A stretch of DNA of 51,069 nucleotides from an uncultured Bacilli bacterium (GCA_944372245.1 CALVYN010000004.1:1-51069); one strand, 5' to 3'. Counted from the first letter of the stretch, positions 1-23,087 are shown. The notes: a model not told the origin generated them from the letters alone. Numbers and translations are program-made.

Positions 1-2676
1 AGCACTGGTGGCGGCCAGGGCGGCTCCAGCGGTTCCGGCGGCGGAACCGCTGAGAAGGCCAATGGCGCTTTCAACTATCTGGCTAAGAGCTACGACGAGC
101 GCGCTGAGATCCTGGGTGCTCTCGAGAGCTATGCGATCACCAACCACCTGACTGGTATCCCCATGTTCGACGATGGCGGCGAGGGCATCTACAGCCAGCG
201 TCTCATCTTCCCCACCGAGAACTACGTCAACGGTTACGGCTGGGGTATGCTGCGCGAGGGTAAGATCAATCCCAACGGCGTGATGCTCCCCGACGGCACC
301 ACCCTCGTGGACACCGATGATCCTTCTCGCAGGTACTATGACTACCTGCACTACATGCAGGATGAGAACCCCGTCACCATCAACGGCGCGGACTCTCAGG
401 ATACTGTCGGTTCCAACTATGACAGCTATGCGCACGTCGGTCTGTTTGGCACCAGGCTGAAGACCGATGCCAACGGCGACTACCTCGAGGAGTACGAGTG
501 GTACCCCGTCCTGGCCAAGACCTTCCCCAAGCCTGAGAAAGGCATCATCGAGGGTGGCGACGGCGAGCAGACTCTGGCTTCCACCTATCGCTTCTACGTC
601 AAGACCGGTGCGGATGGCGTCAAGTATTCCACCCTGTCCACCGATCGTGAGATCAGCCCCTTCAACGGCCGCGATGTCCAGGCTGAGGACTACGAGTTCG
701 CCATGCGCATGCTGCTCTCGGGCGACATCAACTACTACCGTGCCTCCCAGTACATCGACACCACCCCTCTGGTCGGCGCAGCCAACTACTTCAACGTCTC
801 GCAGCAGTACGGCTGGTACTCCAAGGAAGCCGATGCGGCCTGGGAGGGTGTGGGCTATCACGTCGGCCACGACCAGCAGGGCGACTACGTCGAGGTGACC
901 TATCAGGTCCCCACCAACGAGTTCTACGCCATGTACCAGATCACCTCCTTAACCACCCCTGTCCCCCAGGAGTTCTTCGAGACCGTCTGCCACTTCGACG
1001 CGGCGCACCCCGAGACCGCCAACTACCTGGCCTACGGCAACGTTGACGGCAACCGAACCCCCGTGGACACCTACCTGTCCATCGGCCCTTACACCATTGA
1101 GACCTGGCAGACCGGTAACGGCATCTTCACCTTCAAGCAGAACCCTGACTGGTGGGAGGTCAAGGAGGGTGCCTATCAGATCAAGGGCATCAAGTACACG
1201 ACCGACCGCAAAATAAAGGACGATCCCAATGCGGTCATCACCGCCTTCTTCAAAGGCCGGACCGATTCGGCTTCCGTCACCGCCAACTTCTACGATCAGT
1301 GCCACAATGCTCAGAACGAGAGTCTGGTCAAGCAGACTCCCGGTTCCACCACCTTCAAGTGGAATGTGAACTCCTGCGACGATGCGATGTGGGAACAGCT
1401 CTTCGGCCCCAACGGCACCATCGTCCAGACCCCCGAGAGCGGCAAGTGGGAGCTCAAGCCTGCGATGTCCAACGATGACTTCCTCAACGGTCTGTTCGTC
1501 GCGACCGACCGCGATGCCATCGCCGACCAGACCCACTCCAACGCTGCCTACGAGTACTTCACCGACGAGTACCTGATCGATCCCGAGAACGGTGGCGTCT
1601 ACAACGAGACCGAGGCTCACAAAGCCGCTGTCGCTGCCTACTACCCCGAGACCAACGGCTACAACCGCGCCGCGGCTGAGACCCTGTTCACCAGGGCTAT
1701 CCACACCTTCATCGAGTCCGGTGCCTACCAGGCGGATTCCACCATCAGGATCTCCGCGATCCAGATGCTGCAGTCCGAGCTCGACACCTGGGGCAGCCTG
1801 TGGGAGTCCAGCGTCGAGAGCATCTTCAACAGCGCGGCCGACGCTGCCGGCTATCCCGACATGACTCTGGACATCGTCCAGGAGGCTGTCGCCAACCAGA
1901 TGGACGTCTACGACAAGCACCTGAATGTCGGTCAGTTCGACCTGTGCATGGGCGCCATCTCCGGTTCGACCCTCGATCCTCTGGGCTTCATGGAGTGCCT
2001 CAAGTCCGACAACTCCTCCGGCTTCACCCTGAGCTGGGGTACCGACACCTCTCTGGATGATGGCACCCTGCAGTACGACGGCAAGTCCTGGTCCTACGAT
2101 GCGCTCTGGAGTGCGGCCAACGAGGGTGCCCTCGTCAGCAACGGCGAGATGGCTGAGCCCTACCTCTACCTCGAGAGCACCGCGAAGAAGACCGTCATCA
2201 ATACCGATGGCGAGCAGCATGTCGCCCTGCAGCTGTCCTTCGAGGTCAACGCTGACCTCTGCGCGGCGGCTGGCATCGACCTGACTGTCGATCCCGAGAC
2301 CGGCGTGCCCGCCGGCATCGCTGGCGTGAGCGTGACCGCCTCCTACTACGACGCCGACTCCACCCTGATGGTCGACGGCCAGCTCTACAGCTCCTTCAAG
2401 TTCACCAGCAGCGCTGACCAGATCACCTACGATGAGGCGACCAAGACCCTGACTGTCTACATCGACCTCAACCTGGCTACCGACCCCAAGACCGTCACCA
2501 CCGACGACGCTGAGCAGACAGCCTACCTGGAGAAGTTCATCGATGTCTTCTCCGGCGGCGAGGGCTCCAACCCCGTCTCCTTCAGCGTCTCCTTCTCCTC
2601 CAACATGGAGATCAACGGCGTCCCCTCGACCGGCGACAGCGTCACCATCTTCTCCTCCTCGATCGCGAACGCTTAA
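1..2676 (+). CDS. oppA: Oligopeptide ABC transporter substrate-binding protein (family 5 SBP), 5' truncated by the window; apparently circularly permuted, with an extra C-terminal domain
   Basis: Frame is open from base 1 (STGGGQGGSSGSGGGTAEK...), so the ATG at 163 is internal. SBP5-type motifs: YPVLAKTFP...TYRFYVK...NGRDVQAEDYEFAMR, SIGPYTIETW, KQNPDWW, GQFDL. Lies directly upstream of oppBCDF. Confidence 0.88.
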   Translation, partial: STGGGQGGSSGSGGGTAEKANGAFNYLAKSYDERAEILGALESYAITNHLTGIPMFDDGGEGIYSQRLIFPTENYVNGYGWGMLREGKINPNGVMLPDGTTLVDTDDPSRRYYDYLHYMQDENPVTINGADSQDTVGSNYDSYAHVGLFGTRLKTDANGDYLEEYEWYPVLAKTFPKPEKGIIEGGDGEQTLASTYRFYVKTGADGVKYSTLSTDREISPFNGRDVQAEDYEFAMRMLLSGDINYYRASQYIDTTPLVGAANYFNVSQQYGWYSKEADAAWEGVGYHVGHDQQGDYVEVTYQVPTNEFYAMYQITSLTTPVPQEFFETVCHFDAAHPETANYLAYGNVDGNRTPVDTYLSIGPYTIETWQTGNGIFTFKQNPDWWEVKEGAYQIKGIKYTTDRKIKDDPNAVITAFFKGRTDSASVTANFYDQCHNAQNESLVKQTPGSTTFKWNVNSCDDAMWEQLFGPNGTIVQTPESGKWELKPAMSNDDFLNGLFVATDRDAIADQTHSNAAYEYFTDEYLIDPENGGVYNETEAHKAAVAAYYPETNGYNRAAAETLFTRAIHTFIESGAYQADSTIRISAIQMLQSELDTWGSLWESSVESIFNSAADAAGYPDMTLDIVQEAVANQMDVYDKHLNVGQFDLCMGAISGSTLDPLGFMECLKSDNSSGFTLSWGTDTSLDDGTLQYDGKSWSYDALWSAANEGALVSNGEMAEPYLYLESTAKKTVINTDGEQHVALQLSFEVNADLCAAAGIDLTVDPETGVPAGIAGVSVTASYYDADSTLMVDGQLYSSFKFTSSADQITYDEATKTLTVYIDLNLATDPKTVTTDDAEQTAYLEKFIDVFSGGEGSNPVSFSVSFSSNMEINGVPSTGDSVTIFSSSIANA

Positions 2677-2690
2677 AAAAGCTGTTTCAG

Positions 2691-2730
2691 CAAGGAAAAA
2701 AGAGGGTGATATACACCCTCTTTTTCCTTG
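2691..2730 (+). terminator. Stem-loop between oppA and oppB (terminator or mRNA-stabilising hairpin)
   Basis: CAAGGAAAAAAGAGGGTG-atata-CACCCTCTTTTTCCTTG inverted repeat immediately after the oppA stop. Confidence 0.75.
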
Positions 2731-2804
2731 ATTTATATTAAAATTCATTATTGTGCACCTCTGCACTTTTTTCGAGACGACCTTAGAGATACGAGGCAGA
2801 ACAA

Positions 2805-3848
2805 ATGGGAAAACTAAAGTATGTTCTCGAGAGACTTCTGCTGGCGTTCATTACTGGTTTCATCATCCTCACCATCACCTTCATCCTCGTCAAGCTCCTG
2901 CCCGAGGCGAAACCGGCCGGTGACGTCGGCGCACAGCTCTCCTACTACAACAACCAGGTCCGACTTGGCTACTACACCTCCAGCCCCTTCTTCATGGCTG
3001 ATCTCGGCGATCCCACCTGGACTTACACCGCCGATGACGGCACGATGATGTACTTCTACAAGCTGCCGATCATGACCCAGTATGGCAACTGGCTCAGGAA
3101 CGTGTTTACCAAGTGGGATTGGGGAACCTCAAGCAGCATCGACCGAAACCGTGATGTCTTCATCATGATCGGCGAAAGATTGCCCCCCACCATCGTCGTC
3201 AACGTCATCACCTTCGCCCTCGCGGTGCCTCTGGGTATCGCTCTGGGCATCTGGTCCGCCCTCAAGCGGAACAAGCCCACCGATCGGGTCATCTCCGTCC
3301 TGGTCATGGTCTTCATCTCCATCCCCTCCTTCGTCTTCATCTCGCTGCTGATCATCATCTTCGGCTACACGCTCAACTGGCTGCCAGTCCGCTGGCCGGC
3401 GACCACCGCCACCCTGGGAACCAGGGCGGCCGGTCTGGTCATCCCCGTCCTAGCGGGCGCCTTCGGTTCGATCTGCGGCTATGAGCGTCTGGTCAGAGGC
3501 GAGCTGATCGAGGCCCTCTCCTCCGACTACCTGCTCCTGGCCCGCACCAAGGGTCTGACCAAGGGTCAGTCCGTCGTGCGCCACGCCCTGCGCAACGCCA
3601 TGGTCCCCATCCTCCCCTCCATCCTCGCGCAGATCGTCGGTATCCTCGGCGGCTCGGCCATCCTCGAGCAGATCTACTCCATCCCCGGTATCGGACAGCT
3701 GTTCATCCTTTCAATCAAGACGATGGATATCAACGTCATGCTGGCGGATATGACCGTCTTCACGATGATCGGCCTGCTGGCTGGCATCGTCCTCGACCTG
3801 TCCTACGGTTTCCTCGACCCCCGCATCAGGATGGGAGAAAGGAAGTGA
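2805..3848 (+). CDS. oppB: Oligopeptide ABC transporter permease OppB
   Basis: N-terminal KYVLERLLLAFIT..., DWGTS, several TM helices, EAA loop SSDYLLLARTKGL...HALRNA, C-terminal YGFLDPRIR. Confidence 0.95.
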   Translation: MGKLKYVLERLLLAFITGFIILTITFILVKLLPEAKPAGDVGAQLSYYNNQVRLGYYTSSPFFMADLGDPTWTYTADDGTMMYFYKLPIMTQYGNWLRNVFTKWDWGTSSSIDRNRDVFIMIGERLPPTIVVNVITFALAVPLGIALGIWSALKRNKPTDRVISVLVMVFISIPSFVFISLLIIIFGYTLNWLPVRWPATTATLGTRAAGLVIPVLAGAFGSICGYERLVRGELIEALSSDYLLLARTKGLTKGQSVVRHALRNAMVPILPSILAQIVGILGGSAILEQIYSIPGIGQLFILSIKTMDINVMLADMTVFTMIGLLAGIVLDLSYGFLDPRIRMGERK

Positions 3849-3854
3849 TCGCGC

Positions 3855-5870
3855 ATGGAAAATAACGAGTTCTCCTTCGCGCCGCAGACCCCTGCGGTCG
3901 CGGCCGACGGCTTCACCTCCGAGGACTTCAAGTTTGTCCAGCTCGACAAGAGCATCCACGACCAGAGGTTCCAGGGCCGCTCCACCACCTACCTCAGGGA
4001 TATCGTTCGCCGCTTCGTCAAGAACAAGACCTCGGTCTTTGGCTTCTGCCTGTTCGGCCTGTTGATCCTCCTGGCGATCGGCTTTGCCCTGTTCCTGCCC
4101 GGTAACGCCGACAAGACCTCCCCCACCCCCGCTGAGAAGCAGCTGCCGCCCAAGCTCTTTGCGGCCGGCACCGGCTTCTGGGATGGCACCCGCAAGTACG
4201 AGGAGTACCTGTTCGACACCGAGACCGGCCAGCCGGTCCTGGGCAGCCTCGAGCAGGACGCCATCCTCCAGGACACCCTGGTGACCTACGCGGGCACCTA
4301 CGACTCCGAGACCCCCTACGGCCATGGCGGCTACGTCGTCATCGACCCCTCGGCCCAGCTGCGCAGCCCCGTCCTCGAGATGTCGCTGGCGGATGACGGC
4401 AGCGCCTACCAGGGCGAGTACAGCCTGACCTTCGACCACCTCACCTACGGCCTGGACACCTCCTACACCTCCACTCCCACCTACGCCATCTGGTTCCAGG
4501 GCATCGACAACTCCGGCGCCACCATGAGCAACGTCCAGCTGGTCAGCGGCCTGACAATCGACACCAGCCTGGAGCAGACTACCGTCGACCTGAGCGCCTA
4601 TGTCGACGCTATCCAGGCCAACGCCTCTGGCGAGCTGCCCGCGCGCGGCCGCTTCATCGTTCAGGCTGCCGATGCCCCCATCTTCTTCGAGGGCATCAGC
4701 CTGAGCTCCAGCGAGGTCGACTGGAGCGGGACGGGCATCGACGATGCCTCCGACGATCTGATGATCACCCGCTACAACGAGACCTCCGACACCGGCGACG
4801 ACATCGAGGGCTACGAGAACTGGTGGACCCGCTCCTCCTCGCAGTCCGTCCACGGCTACCGTGTCCCCGTCACCTACTGCGACTTCACCTACGACCCCTA
4901 CGAGGAGGTCTACGGCATCTCCACCGTCAGCATGACCCCCGGCACCCTCAACGATCTCAAGACCCGCGGCGCCATCGACTACCAGCTCGATGAGGATGGC
5001 GTCATCATCATCGACTCCCTGGTCGAGCTGAGCGAAGAGAACTATCTGATCATCGGCGACAGCGAGTACCCCATGGAGCTGAAGATCTCCTCCGGTATCG
5101 CCGGCACCACCTGGACCCTCGAGGCCTACCAGATCACCTACAAGAATCCGACCTTCGGCTATACCTCGATGCCAATCCACATCTTCGGTACCGACGTCAA
5201 CGGACTGGACATGCTCAAACTCGTCTCCATCGGTATGCTCTACTCCCTGTTGATCGGTATCGCCGTCTCCGCCATCTGCTTCCTCATCGGTCTGGCCTGG
5301 GGTTCCTTCTCCGGCTATCAGGGCGGTCTGGTCGACCTGGGCATGGAGCGCGTGGTCGACGTCCTCTCCTACATCCCCGGCATGGTCGTCATCACCCTGT
5401 TCATCCTCAACTGGGGCCACACCTTCTGGGTCTTCATGCTGGCGATGTGCGTGACCGGATGGATCTCGACCTCGGCCCTGACGCGCACTCAGTTCTACCG
5501 CTTCAAGCGGCGCGAATACGTCCTCGCCTCGCGGTCGCTGGGCGCTTCCGACGGGCGCTTGATCTACCGCCACATCCTGCCCAACGGCCTGGGAACCATC
5601 ATCACCTCCTCGGTTCTGATGATCCCCTCGGTCATCTACTCCGAGGCCTCTCTGGCCTATCTGGGTCTGGGTCTGCAGGACATCACCTCGCTGGGCACCA
5701 TCATCCAGAACAACCAGAGCACCATCACCACCGCGGGCGGCAACCCCGACCTGACCTACCTGATCATCTTCCCCTCGGTGGTCCTCGCTCTGCTATTGAT
5801 CTGCTTCGAGCTGTTCGGCCAGGGTCTGCGCGATGCGGTCAACCCCAACACCAAGGGTATGGACGACTAG
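3855..5870 (+). CDS. oppC: Oligopeptide ABC transporter permease OppC with a large extracellular insertion
   Basis: OppC N-terminus (YLRDIVRRFVKNK + TM1), then ~360 acidic residues, then HIFGTDVNGLD, EAA loop REYVLASRSLGAS...HILPN, and GQGLRDAVNP. Confidence 0.93.
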   Translation: MENNEFSFAPQTPAVAADGFTSEDFKFVQLDKSIHDQRFQGRSTTYLRDIVRRFVKNKTSVFGFCLFGLLILLAIGFALFLPGNADKTSPTPAEKQLPPKLFAAGTGFWDGTRKYEEYLFDTETGQPVLGSLEQDAILQDTLVTYAGTYDSETPYGHGGYVVIDPSAQLRSPVLEMSLADDGSAYQGEYSLTFDHLTYGLDTSYTSTPTYAIWFQGIDNSGATMSNVQLVSGLTIDTSLEQTTVDLSAYVDAIQANASGELPARGRFIVQAADAPIFFEGISLSSSEVDWSGTGIDDASDDLMITRYNETSDTGDDIEGYENWWTRSSSQSVHGYRVPVTYCDFTYDPYEEVYGISTVSMTPGTLNDLKTRGAIDYQLDEDGVIIIDSLVELSEENYLIIGDSEYPMELKISSGIAGTTWTLEAYQITYKNPTFGYTSMPIHIFGTDVNGLDMLKLVSIGMLYSLLIGIAVSAICFLIGLAWGSFSGYQGGLVDLGMERVVDVLSYIPGMVVITLFILNWGHTFWVFMLAMCVTGWISTSALTRTQFYRFKRREYVLASRSLGASDGRLIYRHILPNGLGTIITSSVLMIPSVIYSEASLAYLGLGLQDITSLGTIIQNNQSTITTAGGNPDLTYLIIFPSVVLALLLICFELFGQGLRDAVNPNTKGMDD

Positions 5871-5887
5871 GAAAGGAGGTCTGAAGT

Positions 5888-7765
5888 ATGAGTGAAGAGA
5901 AGCAGCAGACCTCCGGTGAGGTCATCCTCTCCGTCAGGGATCTGACCATCGACTTCCGCTCCGACGAGGGCTTCACCCAGGCGGTGCGCGGCGTCTCCTT
6001 CGACCTGAAGAAGGGCGAGACGCTGTGCATCGTCGGCGAGTCCGGCTCGGGCAAATCCGTCTCCTGCAAGACCATCATGGGCATCCTGCCCGGCTCGGCC
6101 ATCATCCGCAAGGGTTCGGTCATGTACCGCGGCGAGGATCTGACCAAGATCTCCGAGGAGGAGTTCCATCGCATCCGCGGCAACCTCATCGGCATGATCT
6201 TCCAGGATCCCCTCTCCGCCCTCGACCCCATCGTCAGGATCGGCAAGCAGATCACCGAGTCGATGATGGTCAACGCCAACCGCCTGAAGATCAGGCGCGA
6301 CAACCTGACCCTCAGGGAGCTTTCCCACTACAACTCCATCGTCTCCGAGGTCAAGAAGGCCAAGGCAGCCATCAAGGTCCTCAAGGCTGACAGGGCCGAG
6401 ATCAAGAAGTTCAAGGAGACCTCGGCGGTCAACATCGACTACAGGGTCGACGACCTCCACGCCGCTAACGCCGAGCGCCTCGCCCTCCACCCCGAGGAGA
6501 AGGAGGCTCTGGAGCGCCAGGAGCGCGAGCTCCGGGCCCAGCTGAGCGCTGAGCGCCAGGCTGAGATCGAGAAGCGCCTGGCCTCCCTCAAGGAGCGCAA
6601 GGCCCAGGCCAAGGCCAACTACCGCCAGGTCAAGAAGGCCTCCAAGGCCCCCAAACGCGAGGCCGCCAAGGCCCTGCGCGCGGCCCGGAAGCGGGCCAAT
6701 GCCGAGATACGCACCTTCAAGCGCGACTCCATCGCCGAGTACAAGCACCAGCGCGACCTGATCGAGTCCCGCTACCCCAAGGAGGAGATCGAGGCTGAAT
6801 ACAGGAAGGCCAAGAAGGCCTTCGAGGCCGAGGCCCGCCGTATCGAGAGCGAGCGCAAGGTCGAGCTGGCCAAGATCTCCGCTAAGCGCGCCCTTAGAAA
6901 CAGCGGTCTAGCCGCCGAGCGCAAGGAGGTCAACATCGCCTTCGACCAGAAGCGCAAGGAGGCCTACGAGCGCCTGCTCAAGGCCGCGGAGGACCGCCAC
7001 AACGAGCGCCAGGCCAAGCTGGATGAGAACTTCTTCCACAACTACTGCGAGAAGATCCGCTACACCCGCCGCTACGCCAAGGCCCGCGCCATCGAGGTCA
7101 TGACCGAGGTCGGCATCCCCCAGGCCGAGAAGCGCTTCCGCCAGTACCCCTTCGAGTTCTCCGGCGGCATGCGCCAGCGCATCGTCATCGCCATCGCCCT
7201 GACCGCCAACCCCGAGATCCTCATCTGCGACGAGCCCACCACCGCGCTCGACGTCACCATCCAGGCCCAGATCCTCGAGCTGATCAACCGCCTGAAGAAG
7301 GAGCGCAACATGTCGGTCATCTTCATCACCCACGACATGGGTGTCGTGGCCGAGATGGCTGACCGCATCTGCGTCATGTACGCGGGTAAGATCGTCGAGT
7401 TCGGCACTGCTTACGACATCTTCTACAACCCCAAGCACCCCTACACCTGGGCGCTGCTCTCCTCCATCCCCGACCTCGACTCCAAGGAGAAGCTGGAGGC
7501 CATCCCCGGCACCCCTCCCAACATGAACTTCCCGCCCGAGGGCGACGCCTTCGCGCTGCGCTCCAAGTACGCCATGGCCATCGACTTCAAGCAGATGCCT
7601 CCCTTCTTCAAGGTCTCCAAGACCCACTATGCCGCCACCTGGCTGCTCGATCCTCGCGCCCCCAAGGCCGAGATGCCTAGGATCGTCTCGCGCAGGATCG
7701 AGATCTCACTCAATAAGGCAGGAGTAACGTATGAGCAACTTGAAAGACAGGAAGAATCTGATTGA
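5888..7765 (+). CDS. oppD: Oligopeptide ABC transporter ATP-binding protein OppD with a long basic helical insertion
   Basis: Walker A GESGSGKS, Q-loop IFQDP, signature FSGGMRQR, Walker B ILICDEPTTALD, H-loop ITHD, HPYT oligo_HPY tail. RBS GGAGG upstream. Confidence 0.95.
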   Translation: MSEEKQQTSGEVILSVRDLTIDFRSDEGFTQAVRGVSFDLKKGETLCIVGESGSGKSVSCKTIMGILPGSAIIRKGSVMYRGEDLTKISEEEFHRIRGNLIGMIFQDPLSALDPIVRIGKQITESMMVNANRLKIRRDNLTLRELSHYNSIVSEVKKAKAAIKVLKADRAEIKKFKETSAVNIDYRVDDLHAANAERLALHPEEKEALERQERELRAQLSAERQAEIEKRLASLKERKAQAKANYRQVKKASKAPKREAAKALRAARKRANAEIRTFKRDSIAEYKHQRDLIESRYPKEEIEAEYRKAKKAFEAEARRIESERKVELAKISAKRALRNSGLAAERKEVNIAFDQKRKEAYERLLKAAEDRHNERQAKLDENFFHNYCEKIRYTRRYAKARAIEVMTEVGIPQAEKRFRQYPFEFSGGMRQRIVIAIALTANPEILICDEPTTALDVTIQAQILELINRLKKERNMSVIFITHDMGVVAEMADRICVMYAGKIVEFGTAYDIFYNPKHPYTWALLSSIPDLDSKEKLEAIPGTPPNMNFPPEGDAFALRSKYAMAIDFKQMPPFFKVSKTHYAATWLLDPRAPKAEMPRIVSRRIEISLNKAGVTYEQLERQEESD

Positions 7766-9719: not shown

Positions 9720-9740
9720 CTCCCTTCAAAACTGAGATAG

Positions 9741-9765
9741 ACAGACCTCGAAAGAGGTCTGTTTT
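9741..9765 (+). terminator. Rho-independent terminator of the opp operon
   Basis: ACAGACCTC-GAAA-GAGGTCTGT followed by TTT. Confidence 0.8.
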
Positions 9766-9870
9766 CGTTTGAAAACTCCAGTTGAAGAGTAGCTTTAGAG
9801 CTCGGTGATCAGTTACTAAAAGGAGACATCAATGGAGGAAAACTAAAGGTTGCCAACTCCATTGAACATG

Positions 9871-9900
9871 AAAAAAAGCTCGAGCTTGATGCCCGAGCTT
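9871..9900 (-). terminator. Rho-independent terminator of the Ig-domain lipoprotein gene
   Basis: Minus strand AAGCTCGGGC-atcaa-GCTCGAGCTT followed by a T-run. Confidence 0.7.
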
Positions 9901-9916
9901 CTTTCAGCTGTCAGAT

Positions 9917-12900: not shown

Positions 12901-12940
12901 TTGTCGAGAGAAGACTCAACAGAAAATAGGGCTTTTTCAT
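9917..12940 (-). CDS. Large surface lipoprotein (~1007 aa) with a bacterial Ig-like (Big_2-type) domain
   Basis: Start moved to MKKPYF (ATG 12940, RBS GAAAGGA). Lipobox LPLAA-C, Ser-rich linker, then Big_2-like SVNVGQSITLTAGV...VTWTSLTPEIASVDQTGCVTGLAEGSATIQAAS. The rest is beta-rich and acidic. Confidence 0.85.
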   Translation of the reverse strand: MKKPYFLLSLLSTIVLPLAACTPGEQGNSSSSPVSSTPSTQLPDSTSSSSSSDSSSSQELVITSVSILGPTSVNVGQSITLTAGVEGDPENRVTWTSLTPEIASVDQTGCVTGLAEGSATIQAASTVDPAKTATWTVAVSAVKNVPTKVLPYIDAEEATFDQESGIYTVDVYSTFHVLYNLDVENPIAPVGDVFYRLLPDTSGVSYESYVDVDRATGVCEVLMPLDDVVLTLQVGYPISQTEYVYGELKLQIKDANQEAIDALAEKLTAAVSAEAESATSATVSRSTKTVTTETSFDDSGDPVYTDVTETSDKTIQYDYFTDAVYTTITEPVTTNTGSNINVTNAYSGIQNERYYNFSYTSNYGNTNVNDVYSKSAATGYEQNANLAFNYDDGSTYGLVNNAIEILTSTDYMGAPAIANSAAKRNMVVRSTDHAIGITSVFTSIDNFGTTLDNSISLTLAFDGKGSLTYYAFSSVVLEDSKVINYVSETAELTYGTKTADTSYQNRIVIDNLLVSYLDVNNMFGQKSDQYDFTDDTKYLSKDIPDYEEYEGQRYPVYTMTPNMSFALRLTGSGSVLLDDISVKVTPIEYTILANQGDESDVTPEVPLPVCTVNNLRSDIYIVANSFTNQGNSVKGKSLVTFTTSKGVTKSFIIRYTDFGEPASIRVDHPTDFGQILFGTDTARFFINATPDNPDGYNFVLKDIKDEQGQPADGALELRRPSSTIEGTAGYVIRGLKEGKYTFKIGFADYDLVTTETYTIEVLPPRTNDDIIENVLSQSWDYGSEYMGAHISFDTDASTMTITQNNGDVEYVDTLSYTLTDGVLTLTGGTEVTGMTGTYIAIGQTPTTDPGAGHYDPYFGYIRTDLSIDAALDYESLAVNLVRMGYTNSESVTFTKHYANPVLKYTYSDAYVTYNEAPHYLGVEFNEDGTGVFILKDYNSREELERATFNYTYNSGTLTFTNIGEAEFTASWDETVSCPFYDYGTTAYFTFNPIANSYTFSASFNSNY

Positions 12941-12973
12941 GTGTAAAACTTTCCTTTCGCTTCGACGCGATAG

Positions 12974-13002
12974 ATTATGCAACCACAGCATTTTCTTGTC
13001 AA
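12974..13002 (-). promoter_or_regulatory. Sigma-A type promoter of the Ig-domain lipoprotein gene
   Basis: Minus strand TTGACA-17 nt-CATAAT. An inverted repeat TTGTC-aaagc-GACAA (12996-13010) overlaps the -35 box. Confidence 0.7.
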
Positions 13003-13104
13003 AGCGACAATGTTTGTGTAGTGGAGGACGGGTTTAATTCGAAAGGCAATCTTTCACTAGCAAAGTAGGATTGGAAAACTAAATATCTTTATATATCTGC
13101 AAAC

Positions 13105-13130
13105 GAAAGAAGCCAGCTCGCGCTGGCTTC
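13105..13130 (-). terminator. Terminator ending the four-gene protease/lipoprotein operon
   Basis: Minus strand GAAGCCAGC-GCGA-GCTGGCTTC-TTT right after the stop at 13136. Confidence 0.75.
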
Positions 13131-13135
13131 AGAGC

Positions 13136-15139
13136 TCAGGCCTGAGCCTGAGAGAGGTACTCCTCCAGCTCAGCGACCTGAGCGTGGCCCAGATCGAAGT
13201 AGGAGAAGCTGGTCATCATCATGTTGCCGGAGGGGTCGCTGAGGTAGAGGTAGGCGGTGAGCTTGTTCATCTTGGTGGAGGGGTCATCGCCCTGCAGGCT
13301 GGTGCGGAAGCCCAGAGCGTAGGGGGTCAGGGCCTGACCGCCATAGTTGAAGATGGAGAAGTAATCGACCACCCAGGCGTTGAAGGTGGGGTCGGTATTG
13401 ACCCACATGGGCAGGCCGTAGTCGTCGAAGAGGATGTAGTTATCCAGGTCGTACATGGCCGCCCTTACCGCCTCGGTCTGGTCGCTGAAGGTGGGGTGCG
13501 AGAGGTAGCTCAGATCGTCGCTGGCGCCGTAGTACTCGCCGGTGCCGGGCAGGACGATGTCGGCCGCGTTGCCGACGCTCACCTCGCCCGTGCCATCGAT
13601 CCGGATGTCGACCACGTGGCCATCCTCGAGGAGGAAGCCGTAGTCCGAGCCGCCATAGGACTGGTTGGCGTAGCTGGCGTAGTAGTACTCGGGCGTGTAG
13701 ATGGTCTCGCTCATGTAGAGCTGGCCCAGGCCGTACTGGGCGTAGCGGCCGGTCTCGAACAGCTCCAGGGCCCGGCCGAACTCGGCCTTGTCCTGGGTGG
13801 CGGCATCGTCGCCCTCATAGAGCAGGCGGTCTACCGGGGTGTTCACGGTGCTGTTGAGATCCTTGAAGGTGACGAAGGCCGAACCCAGCTGCTGGCTGGT
13901 GGTCAGGGTCTCGTAGGGAAACTCGACGGTGAAGCTGTGGCTGTCCCAGTCGTCGATGGTGATGAGGATCTCATCGACGTGGAAGGTGTCGTCGTAGCCG
14001 ACGTTGGACAGGTTGGCGATGGCCGAGATCAGCTGGGTGTTGCTGAGGTGGTAGACAGTCTCCCCATCCTCCTCGGTCATGTAGCCCATCAGGGAGGAGG
14101 CAGTCAGATTGAGGAAGCTCTGGCCGATCTCCTGAGCCCACAGGTCGGTCATGGCCGTGCCGGAGGCGTCGGCCGCAGCGATGGCCCCGAAGACGACATC
14201 GCTGTTGTCGTCGACCTTGTAGCCCACGACGGTGTTCATATATTGGACGTAGCCCGAGCCCTCGGTGATGTCGTCGACATAGCTGAACTCAGCCTCGTCG
14301 GTGAAGAGCTTGGTGTACTTAGGCGAGGAGATGCCGGAGGACTGGACCTGGCTCAGGTCGACCTCGACGGTGTAGTTGGTCGAGGCCAGATAGGGCAGCA
14401 TGAAGGCCACGAAGCGGTCGGAGACGTAGTCCTTGGCGGTGCCGCCCTCATCCAGGAAGGTCCTCACCAGGGACAGCTCGGTGGTGCCTACCTGGGTGAA
14501 GGTCGCGCTGACGGTATCCTGGTGGCCGCCTTCGTAGACCAGGCCGACGCCCTCGCTCTGCAGGGCGTTGCCGACTGCGCGGAACCTCAGGGAGGTGGGG
14601 TTGGAGGAGCCCTCGGTGTAGAGCATGCACATCTCGCGCATGATGGCGTCGTTGGCCTCGCTCACGCCGAACTGGTAGGTGTACCAGCCATCCTCGTCCG
14701 CCTGGGCGGGCAGCGCATCCAGGTCGATGTCCTTGAAGGTCGTGCGGAAGTCGGTGATGTCGGTGTAGCGCATGCCGGTGAAGGAGTCGATCGAGGGGGC
14801 CTGGGACTCGACGTGGCGGTCCTGGTTGGCGCCCTCGTAGGTGTAGGGGAAGATCAGGCCGTCGCCCTGGGCGACAGCGTTGAAGCCGAAGTAGCCATCG
14901 GTCTCGATGGCGTAGTCGGTGTAGTAGGTGTGCTGGGTGTAGTCTCTGGCCGCCCCGGCGTAGGAGAGGTCGTACTCCGCGGTGAAGTTGCCCTGGGCGA
15001 GGTTTTGAAACACCCGCTGCAGGGAGTTCAGCTCGGCGGTCTCCGCCTGTCTGACAGGGGTCTCAACGCCCTGGGTCAGGGTCGAGCAGCCGGTGGCGAG
15101 AAACAGGGCGGGCAGGGCGAGAAGCAGATATCTCTTCAT
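13136..15139 (-). CDS. Uncharacterised lipoprotein (667 aa), three internally repeated modules
   Basis: Lipobox MKRYLLLALPALFLATG-C; RBS GGAGG; 2 nt from the upstream stop; coding-type codon bias; repeated NF/YT...GTT-like modules. Confidence 0.85.
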   Translation of the reverse strand: MKRYLLLALPALFLATGCSTLTQGVETPVRQAETAELNSLQRVFQNLAQGNFTAEYDLSYAGAARDYTQHTYYTDYAIETDGYFGFNAVAQGDGLIFPYTYEGANQDRHVESQAPSIDSFTGMRYTDITDFRTTFKDIDLDALPAQADEDGWYTYQFGVSEANDAIMREMCMLYTEGSSNPTSLRFRAVGNALQSEGVGLVYEGGHQDTVSATFTQVGTTELSLVRTFLDEGGTAKDYVSDRFVAFMLPYLASTNYTVEVDLSQVQSSGISSPKYTKLFTDEAEFSYVDDITEGSGYVQYMNTVVGYKVDDNSDVVFGAIAAADASGTAMTDLWAQEIGQSFLNLTASSLMGYMTEEDGETVYHLSNTQLISAIANLSNVGYDDTFHVDEILITIDDWDSHSFTVEFPYETLTTSQQLGSAFVTFKDLNSTVNTPVDRLLYEGDDAATQDKAEFGRALELFETGRYAQYGLGQLYMSETIYTPEYYYASYANQSYGGSDYGFLLEDGHVVDIRIDGTGEVSVGNAADIVLPGTGEYYGASDDLSYLSHPTFSDQTEAVRAAMYDLDNYILFDDYGLPMWVNTDPTFNAWVVDYFSIFNYGGQALTPYALGFRTSLQGDDPSTKMNKLTAYLYLSDPSGNMMMTSFSYFDLGHAQVAELEEYLSQAQA

Positions 15140-15141
15140 GA

Positions 15142-16929
15142 TTAGCGTGCCTCCGTATCGGTCAGCGCGGCGAAGGTCTCATCCAGCGCGCTGACGCTGG
15201 TGGTCCCGATCTGGGAGATGGCCATGTTCATCTGGACCTGGTTAGCGGGATCCTCGGGGTTGTTGGCGTACAGGCGGATGTCGCACCCGTCGATGGCCTG
15301 GTCCGCGCCGCGGTGGATGATGGTCTCGCCGCGGGTGACGTCGCTGACCCAGGAGTCGCCGGGGACGAAGCCGAAGCCGAACAGGCCGTAGCCCAGGGTG
15401 GAGAGGACCGAGGCGTCGGTGGTGTAGTAGGTATCCGCCGCCTTGGGATCCTTCTCCATGTAGAAGCGGGCGATGTGGCCGATGGTGGCGGCCGAGGTGT
15501 AGAAGGTGGCGCTGTTGGTGATGTAGAAGTCGGAGACATCGTCGTACCAGTCGGTGTAGGGCGTGAAGCCGTAGGTGTCGTTGACCGCGTCGATGACCGT
15601 CCACTGGTAGGCGACGTTCTCCGCGGTGACGATGTAGAGCCAGCCCTCATGGCGCTGCTCCTCGGGCAGGGCCATGAGCTCCTCCTTGGTGTCGACCTGG
15701 ACGAACTTGACCGTGTCTGTCTCGTTGGGTCCGAGGCGGGAGATGAAGTGGGGCTGGCCGTCGACGAAGTCGAAGTCGTAACAGGCGGAGTAGGGGACCG
15801 AGGTCACCTCGCTGGGGGCGTAGGTGCCATCAGCCTGCCTGGTCTCCAGCTGGATCTCGACCCCGGCGGGGACGAACATGTAGCCGAAGTCGGTGTAGCC
15901 CTGCTGGTTGTAGGTATCGGTGTAGTCGATCAGGAAGTAGTTCTCCGTCAGCTGGGCATCGAAGGTGGAGAAGGTGCCGCCCTGGTTGGTCACGGTGGGG
16001 TGGATGGTGTAGTTATCCTGGTTCAGCATGCCCTCGTACAGGGTGACGATATCCTGATAGTAGGGCACGCCCTGAATCGTTCCATCCTCCAGCGCCTGGT
16101 CCAGGTCGTCATACTCGGTCTCCATCAGGGGCGTGAAGTCGGAGACGATTGAGCCGCGGTCGCCCAGACCGATGGTGACGCGGAAGCTGTTGGTGTAGGG
16201 GTCGGTGATGGTCAGGCGGCACTCGGTCATCAGCGAGGCGATGGACGAGCCCATCTGGGTCATGAACTGGAAGATCGTGTAGGTCGAGGAGGAGGTGATG
16301 AGGTATTCGGTCTCGCTCAGCTTGATGCCGGTCAGCTCGTCCAGGGTGGTGTCGGAGATGTTGTTCAGGCCCGCGATGCCGAAGACGCCGTAGAGGTCGG
16401 TCATCGGCTCGGGCTCATCGCCGGTGTAGTCGACGTACTCATACAGGGAGGCGCGGTAGCGGTCCAGGCCCTCCTGATCCTCGTCCACATAGAAGCGGAA
16501 GACGTTCTTATCGGCGCCATCCGCCTCCTCGGCCAGGCCGAAGCTGGCGGCGGGGTCGGTCAGGTTCTCCTCGTAGAAGTAGTGTTCGCCGTAGTGGTCG
16601 ACCACCTGGGAGGTCGCTCCGTCGATGTTGTAGGTGGTGGCGTAGGTGTAGGTCCTGAGATCCTTAAAGCCTTCGAGCAGGGTCTTCAGAGCCGAGACGT
16701 CGGTCATATCGACCTCGGCCTCGTCGTCGTACTGGCCGCCGCCCAGCTCGTCCTCACCCACCGGGGGCAGGTCGGGGTCGGGGGTGGAGGAGGAAGAAGA
16801 CGAGGAAGAGCTCGCGCCGGTGGAGACGGGAGTGGAGGAGGAAGAGGAGGTGTGGGAGGTCTGGCCTCCGGGCTGGCAGGAGGCGACGACGATCAGGGGC
16901 AACAGCAGCAGAAGTCTCTTGTTTCGCAT
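15142..16929 (-). CDS. Uncharacterised lipoprotein (595 aa), two related modules
   Basis: Lipobox MRNKRLLLLLPLIVVAS-C, poly-Ser linker, RBS GGAGG; operonic spacing of 2 nt. Confidence 0.85.
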   Translation of the reverse strand: MRNKRLLLLLPLIVVASCQPGGQTSHTSSSSSTPVSTGASSSSSSSSSTPDPDLPPVGEDELGGGQYDDEAEVDMTDVSALKTLLEGFKDLRTYTYATTYNIDGATSQVVDHYGEHYFYEENLTDPAASFGLAEEADGADKNVFRFYVDEDQEGLDRYRASLYEYVDYTGDEPEPMTDLYGVFGIAGLNNISDTTLDELTGIKLSETEYLITSSSTYTIFQFMTQMGSSIASLMTECRLTITDPYTNSFRVTIGLGDRGSIVSDFTPLMETEYDDLDQALEDGTIQGVPYYQDIVTLYEGMLNQDNYTIHPTVTNQGGTFSTFDAQLTENYFLIDYTDTYNQQGYTDFGYMFVPAGVEIQLETRQADGTYAPSEVTSVPYSACYDFDFVDGQPHFISRLGPNETDTVKFVQVDTKEELMALPEEQRHEGWLYIVTAENVAYQWTVIDAVNDTYGFTPYTDWYDDVSDFYITNSATFYTSAATIGHIARFYMEKDPKAADTYYTTDASVLSTLGYGLFGFGFVPGDSWVSDVTRGETIIHRGADQAIDGCDIRLYANNPEDPANQVQMNMAISQIGTTSVSALDETFAALTDTEAR

Positions 16930-16931
16930 CT

Positions 16932-18548
16932 CTAGTGCACCTCCGTGAGGTCCTCGACCGTGACGGTCGCAGACAGGGTTGAACCGTCGTTGAGGGTGTC
17001 CTCGTTCAGGAAGAAGTCGGCATACGTGGCGAAGGAGAAGGTGTCGCCCTCGCCGAAGTAGGAGCGGGCGGTCTGGAAGCCGCCGGTGGAGAAGGTGTTC
17101 TTGCCCTCGGCCTCGATCAGGCGGATTTCGTCGTAGGGGAAGACCTCAATGTCGAGGTTGAGGTCGTAGTAGTACTGGTTGTAGTCGACCGAGTTGGTGA
17201 TGGGGAGGATGAAGCCCTCGCCCTCGCTCAGCTCGGTGCCCTGGGCCTCGGTGGTCACATACTGGCGGGCGATCTCGTCGTAGCGGGTCACGAAGCGGCG
17301 GTTGTCGATATGGTAGATGCGCACGCCGGCTCTTTCGGGAGGCAGGGGGCGCTGGGCCACGGGGTACTCCCGGTCGAGAGCGTTGACGCCGGTGGGGGAG
17401 TACAGCTCGATGAGGATGTACTCGCTGAAGGGGTCGAAGACGCCATCCTCGACGGTCTGACCATCGGGCAGGAGGACGATGAAGCTGTTCTCCTGGTCCG
17501 CGGTCAGGGTGATGGTGGCGTCGCCCGAGACTACGTAGGGCTTCTCCCAGCCCAGCAGCATCTTGGTGTAGGCGTTGTGGTCGCCGATGTTGCCATCCAT
17601 CATGTCGACCTTGCCGACGGGGTTGTAGAAGGAGCGGTCGGAGTAGTAGTCGTTCAGGCCGAGGAAGTGGCCGGTCTCGTGGATGTAGGTGTGGGCGTCG
17701 GGATGGTCCTCGTAGGTGTCGTACATGAAGTCGTAGGAGGCCCAGCCGAAGAGGTTGTAGGCGTACTGGTTCAGATCGGGGTTGGGCGTGACCGACTGGT
17801 TGCCCCAGGAGGTGTAGGCCCAGAAGTTCTGGTCGTCGGTCATCGGGCCGTTGCGGCTGTAGTCCTCGGCCGAGTAGATGACCCAGATGCCGTCGTAGAA
17901 GCCATCCTTGTCGCTGTCGAAGTCCCGGCGGGACAAATGGTAGGTCTTGAAGGCCCAGCTGACCGCATCCTGGACTAGGTCGTAGGTCGCATCGATGGTG
18001 ACCTGGGCAGAGGCGGTGATGCCGGAGAGAGAGGCGTCGTACCAGTCGGTCACGGTGCCCGAGAGGCGCAGCTGGCCGTGGGAGGACTCCTCGTAGAAGG
18101 AGGCGACGGAGTGGATGCCCTCGGCGGTCTCCTCGCCGAAGAAGGCCTGCTCGATGTCGCTCTTGACCGCCGCCTGCTTCTCCTCCTGGGAGAGGGTGGC
18201 GGGCAGATCGGCCTCGGCGAAGCTCTTGTAGTCGGGCATCAGCACGGGGATGACCAGCAGGTTGACATCGCCCTTGGAGGGCAGGACCTGGGTGTTGTAG
18301 AAGCGGTCGTCCTCGATGGAGTGGAGGTCGTCGGCCAGGGTCACCTCATCCGGGGAGAGGACCTGTCCGCCCTCGGCTCCATCGATGCGGATGGTGGCTG
18401 AGTCGGCCGTAGGCTGGACGACGCTGCTGGAGGACGACGAGGAGGAAGAGGAGGTGGCGGAGGAGCTGCTGTCACCCTTGCTCGCCTGGCAGGAAGCCAG
18501 AGCCAGAGGCAGGGCCAGCAGCCCGATTAGATAGCTCTTTCGATTCAT
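16932..18548 (-). CDS. M6 family (immune inhibitor A-like) zinc metalloprotease lipoprotein
   Basis: Lipobox LALAS-C, poly-Ser linker, LPSKGDVNLLVIPV, SVASFYEESSHG, DSDKDGFYDG, zinc motif HETGHFLGLNDYY, Met-turn DMMD. Confidence 0.9.
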   Translation of the reverse strand: MNRKSYLIGLLALPLALASCQASKGDSSSSATSSSSSSSSSSVVQPTADSATIRIDGAEGGQVLSPDEVTLADDLHSIEDDRFYNTQVLPSKGDVNLLVIPVLMPDYKSFAEADLPATLSQEEKQAAVKSDIEQAFFGEETAEGIHSVASFYEESSHGQLRLSGTVTDWYDASLSGITASAQVTIDATYDLVQDAVSWAFKTYHLSRRDFDSDKDGFYDGIWVIYSAEDYSRNGPMTDDQNFWAYTSWGNQSVTPNPDLNQYAYNLFGWASYDFMYDTYEDHPDAHTYIHETGHFLGLNDYYSDRSFYNPVGKVDMMDGNIGDHNAYTKMLLGWEKPYVVSGDATITLTADQENSFIVLLPDGQTVEDGVFDPFSEYILIELYSPTGVNALDREYPVAQRPLPPERAGVRIYHIDNRRFVTRYDEIARQYVTTEAQGTELSEGEGFILPITNSVDYNQYYYDLNLDIEVFPYDEIRLIEAEGKNTFSTGGFQTARSYFGEGDTFSFATYADFFLNEDTLNDGSTLSATVTVEDLTEVH

Positions 18549-18555
18549 GATCTGC

Positions 18556-20370
18556 TTACTCCTTCAGAGTGGTCACATCGACGGTGAAGGGGAGGTTCTG
18601 ACCGCCGTTATAGGTGTAGCTGCCGTTGAAGAACTGCATGGCGAAGCCGGCGATGGAGAAGGGCTCGGTCGCGGGGGTGAACAGGGTGTCCTCGGTCATG
18701 GGCTGACCCATCTCGAAGGTGTTCACCCGGGTCGCTTCCAGAAGGCGGAGCTGGTCGAAGCTGTTGAAGCTGATACCCAGCTGCATGCCCAGGCTGGAGT
18801 CGACATCGATGTTGCCGGTGCCGACGGCGTTGGTGATGGGCATGAAGATGGCCTGGTTATTCTCCAGCTGCTCGCCCTCCCAGATGTAGTCCTGGTTGTT
18901 GAACAGGATGTTCTGCTGGCCGGTGATGGTCTCCTGGATCGTGCACTTGAAGATGCGGGAGTCGACGTGGTAGATGCGCACGCCGGTCGCCTCGGGGCCG
19001 GACTGGCGGGCGTTGAGGATATCCTCGCCGATGTCTCTCCCGTTCAGCCCATCGGGGGTGTACAGGTCGATCATGATGTACTCGCTGAAGGGGTTGAACT
19101 CGATCTTGATCTCGTCGGGGTCGTAGCCGTCGTCCAGCTGGGCCTTGACCTGGTCGTTGATCTCCTCGTAGTTCGCGGGGATGACGATGACCTGATGGTC
19201 GTTGACCTGGCTGCCCTGGAGGAGGATCTGGGAGGGACCATAGGCCACGTAGGGGGTGACCCAGCCCAGGACCATCTTGGAGTAGGAGTCCAGGTCGCCG
19301 ACGTTCTGGTCCATCATCGTGAACTGGCCCGCGGGGCGGTAGGTCGCCGAGTCGGTGGCGTAGTAGTCCTCCAGACCCAGGAGGTGTCCGGTCTCGTGGA
19401 TGAAGGTGTGGGAGTCGACGGGAATCGAGGCATAGTCATCCAGATCGGGCACATCGTTGGGCAGCATCTCGCAGTAGCCGGTGTAGAGGGAGGAGAAGGA
19501 GGCCCAGGAGAAGGCCGAGGTGCCGTGGCCCCACTCGATCTGCTCCTGGATGTCCTCCTTGGACTTGTAGGAGTCGTAGTCCCAGGAGGTCATGTTCCAC
19601 CAGGTGTTGTCGATGTCGCTGGTCCCGTCGATCGCGTTCTGGGAGTAGGTGTCCAGCTTGTCGTAGACCAGCCAGATGCCATCGATGTAGCCGTCGGCAT
19701 CGTAGTCGTAGTTATCGAGATCGATGCCCTGAGTATCGACCGCCCAGCCGACCGCGGCGCGCAGGATCTCCTGAATCCCCGCGTTGCGATTGGCGGAGAG
19801 CTGCTCGGTGGACTGGATCGAGGTGTGGGCCGCCACGTCGAACCAGTCGGTGACCTCGCCGCAGAAGTTCAGCTTCCCGAAGGAGGCCTGGCGGTAGTAC
19901 TCCGCGAGGGAGGGATATCCCAGGCGGGCATCGTTCTCGTCGCCGAAGAAGGCGCTCTCGATATCCTGGCGCACCTGCTCGGTGTTATTGGTCTCGCCGG
20001 GCAGGTGGACGGGGATGACAAGCAGGTTGACGTCGCCGATGGAGGGGCAGACGGTCTGGTTGTTGCTGAGGGTGCCAGACAGGGTCTGGTAGGACAGGTT
20101 CACGCTGACGTTGCGAGGGGCGATGTAGCACTCGTCCAGCGCGCTGTCCTCGCTGCGGAAGATGCGGACGGTGGCCGTGCCGTCATCCTCGGCGGTGATT
20201 ACGGGCGCCTCGCCGGTGCTCGAGGAGCTGGACGAGCTGGATGATGAGGAGCTGTCCACCGGGGTGGAGCTGCTGTCGGAGCTGGAGGATCCTTCTCCAG
20301 GGTTGCCCTGACAGCCGACCTGGATCAGGCCGATGGTCGAGAGCAGGAGTGGAAGCAGATTCTTTCTCAT
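18556..20370 (-). CDS. M6 family (immune inhibitor A-like) zinc metalloprotease lipoprotein, paralogue
   Basis: Lipobox IQVG-C, poly-Ser linker, PSIGDVNLLVIPV, SLAEYYRQASFG, DYDADGYIDG, HETGHLLGLEDYY, TMMD. RBS AAGGAG. Confidence 0.9.
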   Translation of the reverse strand: MRKNLLPLLLSTIGLIQVGCQGNPGEGSSSSDSSSTPVDSSSSSSSSSSSSTGEAPVITAEDDGTATVRIFRSEDSALDECYIAPRNVSVNLSYQTLSGTLSNNQTVCPSIGDVNLLVIPVHLPGETNNTEQVRQDIESAFFGDENDARLGYPSLAEYYRQASFGKLNFCGEVTDWFDVAAHTSIQSTEQLSANRNAGIQEILRAAVGWAVDTQGIDLDNYDYDADGYIDGIWLVYDKLDTYSQNAIDGTSDIDNTWWNMTSWDYDSYKSKEDIQEQIEWGHGTSAFSWASFSSLYTGYCEMLPNDVPDLDDYASIPVDSHTFIHETGHLLGLEDYYATDSATYRPAGQFTMMDQNVGDLDSYSKMVLGWVTPYVAYGPSQILLQGSQVNDHQVIVIPANYEEINDQVKAQLDDGYDPDEIKIEFNPFSEYIMIDLYTPDGLNGRDIGEDILNARQSGPEATGVRIYHVDSRIFKCTIQETITGQQNILFNNQDYIWEGEQLENNQAIFMPITNAVGTGNIDVDSSLGMQLGISFNSFDQLRLLEATRVNTFEMGQPMTEDTLFTPATEPFSIAGFAMQFFNGSYTYNGGQNLPFTVDVTTLKE

Positions 20371-20504
20371 ATCTATCTCCTTGACTTAAAAAAGGGATTT
20401 GCACGCGATTCGGGCCTGAGTTGAGCGCAGTGGGTCCCCAGCGCTTCGCCTCAGCTTTCCCAGTGTGGAAAAAAACATAAATTCCGAATCGGACAAGAAT
20501 ATAA

Positions 20505-20537: not shown

Positions 20538-20561
20538 CGGTATACGGTTTCAAAGATGCTA

Positions 20562-23083: not shown

Positions 23084-23087
23084 AAAC

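Follow-up and report, generated by a model that had tools for sequence, protein, structure and literature searches.

Do five lipoprotein genes that converge on an oligopeptide importer operon form, together with that importer, one protein-foraging locus, or are two independent modules lying side by side? The question is raised by a 51,069-nucleotide (nt) stretch of DNA from an uncultured Bacilli bacterium (GCA_944372245.1, CALVYN010000004.1:1-51069; hereafter the window), which is one entire contig (C4) of a 1.12-Mb genome assembly (G000; 61 contigs, 60% GC, 90% complete). Its minus strand carries the genes for two lipoprotein zinc metalloproteases of peptidase family M6, M6a (20370..18556; 604 amino acids, aa) and M6b (18548..16932; 538 aa), for the lipoproteins LpU1 (16929..15142; 595 aa) and LpU2 (15139..13136; 667 aa), and for BigLp (12940..9917; start MKKPYF), a 1007-aa lipoprotein; we call these five genes the cassette. 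An earlier note on this DNA had described a tightly spaced four-gene lipoprotein operon and a fifth, Ig-domain lipoprotein, all converging on plus-strand oppABCDF, and had read the whole as an analogue, for protein, of a polysaccharide-utilization locus (PUL). The gene map agrees with that description: the first four genes are separated by 7, 2 and 2 nt, 195 nt lie between LpU2 and BigLp, BigLp contains a Big_2 domain, and all five genes are convergent with opp. Because contigs from two independent studies bridge the oppF–BigLp junction (X3 record 12, 9225-14140; X7 record 22, 9212-10732), the adjacency is no assembly artefact. Genome comparisons nevertheless indicate that the cassette and opp are two independent modules, which probably do not form a single built-in machine.

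The cassette is conserved and is inherited as a unit. Among 27 cassette loci obtained from a scan of one genome per species, 25 carry all five genes in the same order and on the same strand, and the other two begin inside M6b at a contig end. Co-occurrence of the two unannotated lipoprotein families with both M6 genes, which the earlier note had put forward as a check of its proposal, therefore holds throughout. Eight of these loci are on the same contigs as those found in a set of 60 relatives, where near-full-length LpU1 homologues occur in eight genomes (the remaining matches span only the signal peptide and Ser stalk) and the order M6a-M6b-LpU1-LpU2-BigLp is kept in all eight, with one locus cut by a contig end. 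Intergenic gaps in the relatives' cassettes are short, or the genes overlap, and LpU2 is seemingly split in two loci (into two open reading frames, ORFs, in L030 and as two matches in L046). In 11 of the 27 loci (among them L029, L030, L032-L038 and L043) the cassette is flanked by a gene of a sixth large lipoprotein family (654-1073 aa, measured stop to stop), placed directly before M6a or directly after BigLp; some members of this family have an InlB B-repeat/Flg_new_2 domain, and no homologue of it was found in G000.

The importer does not travel with this unit. PULs are characterized by the conserved co-localization of binding proteins, enzymes and a transporter, and opp accompanies none of the 27 cassette loci: matches to OppA, OppB or OppC are absent from all of their flanks (inspected up to 10 kb), and only weak matches to a generic ABC ATPase domain occur, in the flanks of five. 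OppA homologues are present in 30 of the 60 relatives, whereas the cassette is present in 8. Five of these eight cassette genomes have an OppA homologue, in each case on another contig; in the remaining three, a permease with OppC_N is encoded on another contig or ~190 kb away. Each module also appears to be a transcript of its own. Past the BigLp stop lies a strong hairpin with a U-run (9876..9905, minus strand; -21.1 kcal/mol, z -4.6) that marks the end of the cassette transcript, and past the oppF stop lies another that marks the end of the opp transcript (9739..9770, plus strand; -18.3 kcal/mol, z -4.5), both of which a consensus scan missed. At the other end of the cassette, M6a has its own promoter-like site (TTGAAA-17-TATATT), which overlaps the terminator of the preceding MscS gene (20498..20538, minus strand; sequence scan), and an AAGGAG ribosome site ahead of its ATG at 20370. 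Synteny gives the same picture, since G002, a genome of the same genus, reads fni-MscS-SDR-oppFDCBA-small membrane protein-S8 where G000 reads fni-MscS-cassette-oppFDCBA, and G002 carries its own cassette on a different contig from its opp. The cassette thus appears to occupy a variable slot, beside opp in this lineage only.

These results bear most directly on the proposal of an integrated, PUL-like protein-utilization locus, in which the cassette and an enlarged Opp, perhaps as one tethered complex, would capture and cleave protein and hand the peptides to OppA. The earlier note had stated that such a locus would be refuted if the lipoprotein operon were not linked to opp in other genomes. 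With opp in the flanks of 0 of 27 loci, separate terminators, convergent orientation and an SDR gene in the corresponding slot of G002, the linkage finds no support, and neither does the PUL analogy, in which the transporter would have to be genomically coupled to the cassette. What speaks for integration is that the adjacency is real in this species, that an Opp-type permease is encoded somewhere in all five cassette genomes tested, that surface proteases do lie beside opp in the clade (see below), and that unexplained extracytoplasmic parts of OppA and OppC could dock partners. We nonetheless regard an integrated locus as very unlikely and largely refuted by the genomes, not least because opp is far more widespread than the cassette and its inserts are present whether or not a cassette is.

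The enlargement of Opp, which the earlier note had counted as part of the same system, is indeed real but has no tie to the cassette. The operon encodes the peptide-binding lipoprotein OppA (1..2676, plus strand; at least 891 aa visible, the contig start having removed the N-terminus within a Gly/Ser linker), the permeases OppB (2805..3848, plus strand; Pfam and NCBIfam) and OppC (3855..5870, plus strand; 671 aa), and the ATPases OppD (5888..7765, plus strand; 625 aa) and OppF (7731..9719, plus strand; 662 aa). Two permeases (BPD_transp_1, OppC_N) and two ATPases with an oligo_HPY C-terminal region identify it as an importer of the Opp/Dpp type. OppC has a ~340-aa insert between OppC_N (45-99) and the permease core (441-666), OppD a charged helical insert, and OppF an N-terminal extension of ~200 aa as well as an insert. 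In 16 opp loci of relatives, with or without a cassette, OppC is 637-733 aa and the lipoprotein OppA 770-1016 aa in every case (16/16), so that the enlargement is a trait of the lineage unrelated to the cassette. The Opp of Mycoplasma (JCVI-syn1 MMSYN1_0165-0168) is the closest known likeness: OppD and OppF have the M. mycoides syn1 OppD and OppF models as their best matches, inserts included (NF043079, E 3.4e-133; NF043078, E 1.2e-122). Both scores fall below the equivalog cut-offs, however, OppA has no family match, and the OppC insert is uncovered (the model matches residues 441-666 only). That insert (OppC ~100-440), which is extracytoplasmic, belongs to no family and keeps its size in 16/16 relatives, might be where the lipoprotein OppA docks. 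The OppF extension (residues 1-200; window 7731-8330) is rich in Ala, Glu and Val; the G002 match (39.5% identity) covers residues 1-328, and the OppF matches of other relatives start only at about query residue 200, in ORFs of 433-540 aa stop to stop.

The earlier note had also taken OppA to be permuted, a view that its alignment does not support. OppA has no match in Pfam or NCBIfam at E up to 5, and as a single sequence it retrieved nothing useful from solved structures. A profile of 17 homologues, however, matches AliD, OppA and 6npo structures at E 1.7e-7 to 9.6e-7 in colinear fashion, and against AliD (8qlc; E 1.7e-7) query residues 282-698 align with chain residues 112-490. Over the aligned part, OppA is thus predicted to be a very divergent, colinear peptide-binding protein of family 5.

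If Opp does not belong with the cassette, with what does it belong? By analogy, it would form, with an S8 subtilase and the cytoplasmic M29 aminopeptidase encoded at 29035-30282, the familiar protease-plus-Opp feeding system of lactic acid bacteria. Six of the 16 opp loci have an S8 subtilase with a PA domain (1295-1439 aa) directly ahead of oppA (four by Pfam, all six by tblastn). G000 encodes such a protein on another contig, C6: a 1295-aa, lactocepin-like subtilase with S8, PA and fn3_5 domains (C6:34536-38432), 55% identical to that of G002 and 700 nt from the end of C6. After it, at the C6 end, comes a 149-aa membrane ORF (C6:34536-39144 for both; L065), homologues of which immediately precede oppA in 6 of the 16 loci. 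A contig break thus separates S8 from oppA in G000, and because the two ORFs at the C6 end are found upstream of oppA in relatives, C6 probably joins the start of the window. A contig from another study (X3 record 9) runs 10.9 kb past the window start. As far as the available portions of the sources describe it (PMC7783315, PMC3587842), the system of lactic acid bacteria (PrtP/lactocepin, Opp and peptidases) is matched here by Opp, the M29 aminopeptidase and the S8+PA+fn3_5 subtilase; it differs in that the Opp described here has inserts of the mycoplasma type, that S8 is off the window with a conjectural join, and that the M6 cassette is without counterpart there.

The distribution of the cassette sets it apart as an accessory element. 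The related loci belong to an order that is presumably RF39. Among 400 genomes sampled from this order, the LpU1 profile matches 33, always in single copy and in 12 of 70 genera (7/66 genomes in family f1, 21/265 in f3, 5/31 in f7 and 0/38 in other families), a patchy accessory pattern. The identities of cassette proteins to the window do not follow those of a housekeeping protein. For pyruvate phosphate dikinase (PPDK), identity is 89% in G002 and 78% in G003 (both of the same genus as the window organism), 68% in G007, 62% in G042 and 61% in G051; for M6a the corresponding values are 46, 47, 65, 63 and 52%, and for LpU1 they are 31, 31, 47, 41 and 31%, such that the cassettes of G002 and G003 are among the most distant. 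This discordance indicates that the cassette has its own history, through transfer or through old types with differential loss, and horizontal exchange is probable. Acquisition, if any, was not recent, because cassette GC (0.586-0.635) is the same as that of the contig; cassette-bearing relatives range from 24 to 55% GC.

What might the cassette do? Its first two products, M6a and M6b, are paralogues (34% identity) and appear to be divergent members of the M6 family, with scores for PF05547 (Peptidase_M6) of 29.6 and 26.7 bits against a gathering score of 22; the same domain is precomputed on most close homologues, and one cluster of M6a homologues alone holds 1476 member sequences. The extended zinc motif of M6 peptidases is HEXXHXXGXXD. 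M6a has HETGHLLGLED at residue 325, after a lipid-anchor Cys20 and a Ser-rich stalk, and M6b has HETGHFLGLND at residue 290. The pattern HEXXHXXGXX[DE] is retained in 26/26 copies of M6a and 27/27 copies of M6b that cover the active site, and from these intact motifs both proteases look active. We infer from this that the cassette is proteolytic and acts at the cell surface. The catalytic domain and its motif are shared with InhA of Bacillus and PrtV of Vibrio. Unlike those secreted proteins, M6a and M6b would be lipid-anchored by way of a Ser stalk; they are also shorter, score below the TIGR03296 cut-off, have no solved structure matched at the level of sequence, and form a paralogous pair that is invariably accompanied by three non-enzymatic lipoproteins. 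M6a searched alone against the sequences of solved structures gave just two weak low-complexity matches (E 0.34 and 0.59).

G000 encodes one further protein of this kind. Contig C12 (C12:13239-19350; L064) carries a third lipoprotein gene of M6-like type with a Ser stalk, whose product shares 27% identity with M6b; after it come ORFs of 497, 429 and 547 aa, all three for secreted proteins or lipoproteins of no family. The 497-aa ORF shows weak C-terminal similarity to LpU1 (LFGYG...DFGTT; hhalign probability 38%, E 3.3e-4), and four of five hhalign comparisons of these neighbours with the LpU profiles found nothing. This may be a second, looser cluster of an M6 protease with partners.

InhA of Bacillus is active against insect antibacterial peptides, and membership of the same family raises the possibility that the cassette is directed at a host or at competitors: the M6 pair would destroy antimicrobial peptides, immunoglobulins, mucins or other host proteins, with LpU1, LpU2 and BigLp capturing the targets. 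A patchy accessory distribution and an exchange-like history are typical of niche factors, and matching DNA comes from animal-gut metagenomes (among the 13 matching runs listed, none is RNA). Furthermore, no match to a penicillin-binding protein (PBP) transpeptidase (PF00905) was found in the 90%-complete assembly, which suggests that the membrane may be exposed. Pfam and PDB searches, however, found no likeness to known immunoglobulin-binding or -cleaving systems, and a nutritional role fits the genomic data equally well. We therefore consider defence a possible role, though on present evidence an unlikely one.

Pfam and NCBIfam assign LpU1 and LpU2 to no family, even with E relaxed to 5, so it is their predicted structure that places them. 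The two are distant paralogues, given that their profiles align over the first ~250-300 residues (hhalign probability 96.9%, E 1.8e-10, to which the signal peptide contributes part). AlphaFold models made from nine-row alignments reached a mean predicted local distance difference test score (pLDDT) of 76.7 for LpU1 and 80.5 for LpU2. LpU1 consists of a disordered Ser stalk (1-72), a LolA/LprG-like open barrel (73-285) and beta-rich domains to the C-terminus; LpU2, which has no Ser stalk, consists of two LolA/LprG-like barrels (~36-219 and 235-439) and a beta-rich C-terminal part. In VIA-align searches the LpU1 barrel resembled LprF (4qa8; Z 9.4, root-mean-square deviation (rmsd) 4.0, 172 residues aligned), LprG (Z 9.1) and LppX (Z 8.9), followed by many LolA/LolB/RseB entries. 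The second LpU2 barrel resembled LprF (Z 9.5, rmsd 4.0, 174 aligned), LprG (Z 9.3) and LppX (Z 7.7), and the first was LolA-like (Z 5-6.4); over both proteins, many LolA entries score Z 5-7. Foldseek returned LolA (1iwl) and the two-barrel BFA1, each at probability 1.0, as well as RseB/MucB and TbpB-like surface lipoproteins, with low TM-scores. The models have the open antiparallel beta-barrel and N-terminal helix that typify LolA and LppX-LprAFG proteins, and we read LpU1 and LpU2 as tandem open beta-barrel lipoproteins of the LolA/LprG-like class, although neither sequence belongs to the curated LolA or LppX-LprAFG families in the searches above. The mycobacterial lipoproteins LppX, LprG and LprF, within the wider company of LolA, LolB and RseB, are thus top structural neighbours of LpU1 73-285 and LpU2 235-439 (best Z 8.9-9.5 over 151-177 residues, rmsd 4.0-5.0), from which LpU1 and LpU2 differ in identity (9-13%), in the lack of a Pfam match and in being three times longer with tandem barrels.

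The LpU1 family is compact. Its profile matches 55 clusters among 1.84 billion representative proteins (E ≤ 0.001), with all members at most 636 aa long and no fused forms; for LpU2, a word-indexed protein search with the profile gave at least 10 matches, which is no measure of family size. Searching all G000 ORFs with the LpU1 and LpU2 hidden Markov models revealed no additional members. BigLp has one Big_2 domain (E 5.9e-11) past its Ser stalk and ~850 further residues without a family; in its comparison with the LpU1 and LpU2 profiles, alignment was confined to the signal peptide or to 36 columns, which shows no relation beyond the signal peptide. Atlas look-ups placed LpU2 and BigLp in hypothetical Bacillota clusters only, with DUF6612 (at 0.88) a mere lead.

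The fold of LpU1 and LpU2 invites a lipid-centred explanation, in which a fatty-acid auxotroph would use the barrels to bind fatty acids, sterols or acylated molecules, while the M6 proteases strip protein from lipid-protein particles or membranes. LprF, LprG and LppX, the nearest structural neighbours, are lipid-binding lipoproteins, the LolA family is also near, and a lipoprotein anchor places the barrels at the membrane surface. Moreover, no ketoacyl synthase (PF00109) match was found in the 90%-complete assembly, in a search that was positive in all 14 control genomes. Taken with the lack of a PBP transpeptidase match, this hints at a mycoplasma-like way of life, without a wall and dependent on fatty acids, at 60% GC, in an assembly that is only 90% complete. 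Lipid dependence, however, is presumably general in the order, and just 33 of its 400 sampled genomes have the cassette; fold similarity at Z ~9 is modest and shows no ligand; and the constant presence of two proteases is left unexplained. Lipid harvesting as the main role is consequently doubtful in our view, more so than defence.

All five proteins have the features of lipoproteins that the earlier note had reported. In each, a signal peptide is followed by a Cys (IQVGC, LASC, VASC, ATGC and LAAC), and, although two of them depart from the textbook at position -3, the relatives' homologues have clear lipoboxes; LspA is encoded in G000. In every protein but LpU2, the Cys is followed by runs of Ser. 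The strong acidity that had been noted was also confirmed (isoelectric points of 4.05-4.16 across all five), but because OppA (4.20) and OppC (4.31) are similarly acidic, it is not a trait specific to the cassette. Weak N-terminal matches on several contigs indicate many Ser-stalk lipoproteins in this genome, and LolA-like folds in other bacteria handle lipoprotein acyl chains (according to structure-entry titles). The M6 pair might accordingly process or shed lipoproteins of the cell itself, while the barrels shield or present substrates anchored by acyl chains. A housekeeping role of this kind poorly fits presence in ~8% of the sampled genomes of the order, as well as a cassette history discordant with that of the genome, and we hold self-directed maintenance to be the least probable of the roles considered here.

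Our best explanation, which we regard as evenly poised between right and wrong, is that an ordinary Opp of this mycoplasma-like clade stands beside an independent accessory operon that builds a surface proteolytic unit. The cassette would build a membrane-tethered unit at the cell surface in which two catalytically intact, paralogous M6 zinc endopeptidases are held on Ser stalks. LpU1 and LpU2 would be dedicated partners of the proteases, acting as receptors for substrate or ligand or as activators in the way that GerS acts on CwlD, and BigLp would serve as an outward-reaching arm for binding or as a scaffold. Released peptides could feed Opp, although the genomes tie cassette and Opp nowhere. 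The pattern of two paralogous proteases and two paralogous barrel proteins, together with strict co-inheritance, suggests that the proteins associate as heteromers, and we infer a physical association of all five. There is precedent for such a partnership: in the available text of the report on Clostridioides difficile (bioRxiv 10.1101/2021.06.21.449279), GerS, a lipoprotein with a LolA-like fold, binds the zinc amidase CwlD and activates it allosterically. The likeness is that, in a member of the Bacillota, a zinc hydrolase has a LolA-like lipoprotein as its encoded partner; as far as that text goes, GerS is a single domain-swapped barrel and CwlD an amidase, whereas LpU1 and LpU2 have several barrels, stand beside proteases and are likened to GerS by fold only.

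A bolder version of this explanation, which we put forward tentatively and think improbable, a shade more so than defence, is an undescribed mobile surface machine of possibly wall-less gut Bacilli. The barrel lipoproteins would be obligate partners (receptors or activators) of a heteromeric M6 pair, the capture of lipid-protein particles or of host proteins would fall to the Big_2 arm, and proteolysis would be coupled to the extraction of lipid or peptide at the membrane. If true, two new protein families would define a protease-receptor complex of a new class.

Several observations count against an independent surface proteolytic unit of five jointly expressed proteins, or against parts of it. 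The proteases score 80.3 bits (M6a; E 2e-22) and 95.4 bits (M6b; E 6e-27) for TIGR03296, under the cut-off of 110.8, and the M6b profile matches no solved structure. BigLp has its own promoter-like site (TTGACA-17-CATAAT; 13002-12974, minus strand), preceded by a hairpin with a T-run after LpU2 that may be a partial terminator (13109..13130, minus strand; -17.6 kcal/mol, z -3.2), so that co-transcription of all five genes is not assured in this genome. For LpU1 and LpU2, Z ~9 exceeds only modestly the Z of 7-8 that the alignment tool rates as common, and the fold shows no function; since lipid binding is usual for LolA/LprG-like barrels, a non-proteolytic role of the two would fit equally well. 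The discordant identities could mean old paralogous cassette types with differential loss instead of exchange. As for the separation from peptide uptake, surface proteases do occur near opp in the clade (S8 in 6/16 loci, an M6 homologue in 1/16), and the cassette may have a loose functional association with peptide uptake. Finally, the join of C6 to C4, on which the placement of S8 depends, comes from synteny alone, and the C6 end does not contain the oppA start.

Even so, the analysis parts two things that the window presents as one: a familiar protease-plus-Opp feeding system, and an undescribed operon of five lipoproteins kept together across species. M6 peptidases, LolA-like folds and Big_2 domains are of known kinds, and what is new is two unannotated protein families and the invariant five-gene combination. 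A literature search, which did not cover supplements, found no published description of the five-gene operon, and in its available text a paper on RF39/Tenericutes genomics (PMC7301438) mentions oligopeptide uptake and not the cassette. The surface systems of Bacteroidota, the SusC/D utilisomes encoded by PULs, are similar in concept, in that binding proteins and enzymes, as surface lipoproteins, are co-localized. They differ in that here both a SusC/SusD pair and an outer membrane are lacking, and the transporter is uncoupled (opp near 0/27 loci). Beyond correcting the notion of a PUL for protein, these results supply candidates for structural and biochemical study, and because two zinc proteases are strictly co-inherited with two multi-barrel lipoproteins of LolA-like fold, they yield a testable hypothesis, namely that the barrels are protease partners. 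Uncultured Bacilli with small genomes are common in animal and human gut metagenomes.

Two minor observations concern the surroundings of the cassette and its stalks. Beside it, window positions 20562-30282 encode MscS, a type-2 isopentenyl diphosphate (IPP) isomerase, three GHMP kinases/decarboxylase of the mevalonate pathway, PPDK and the M29 aminopeptidase, all housekeeping genes syntenic with G002. Among metagenome strains, in-frame indels of 3, 6 and 9 nt occur in the Ser-stalk runs of LpU1 (window 16786-16793) and M6b (18422-18428), and stalk length accordingly varies.

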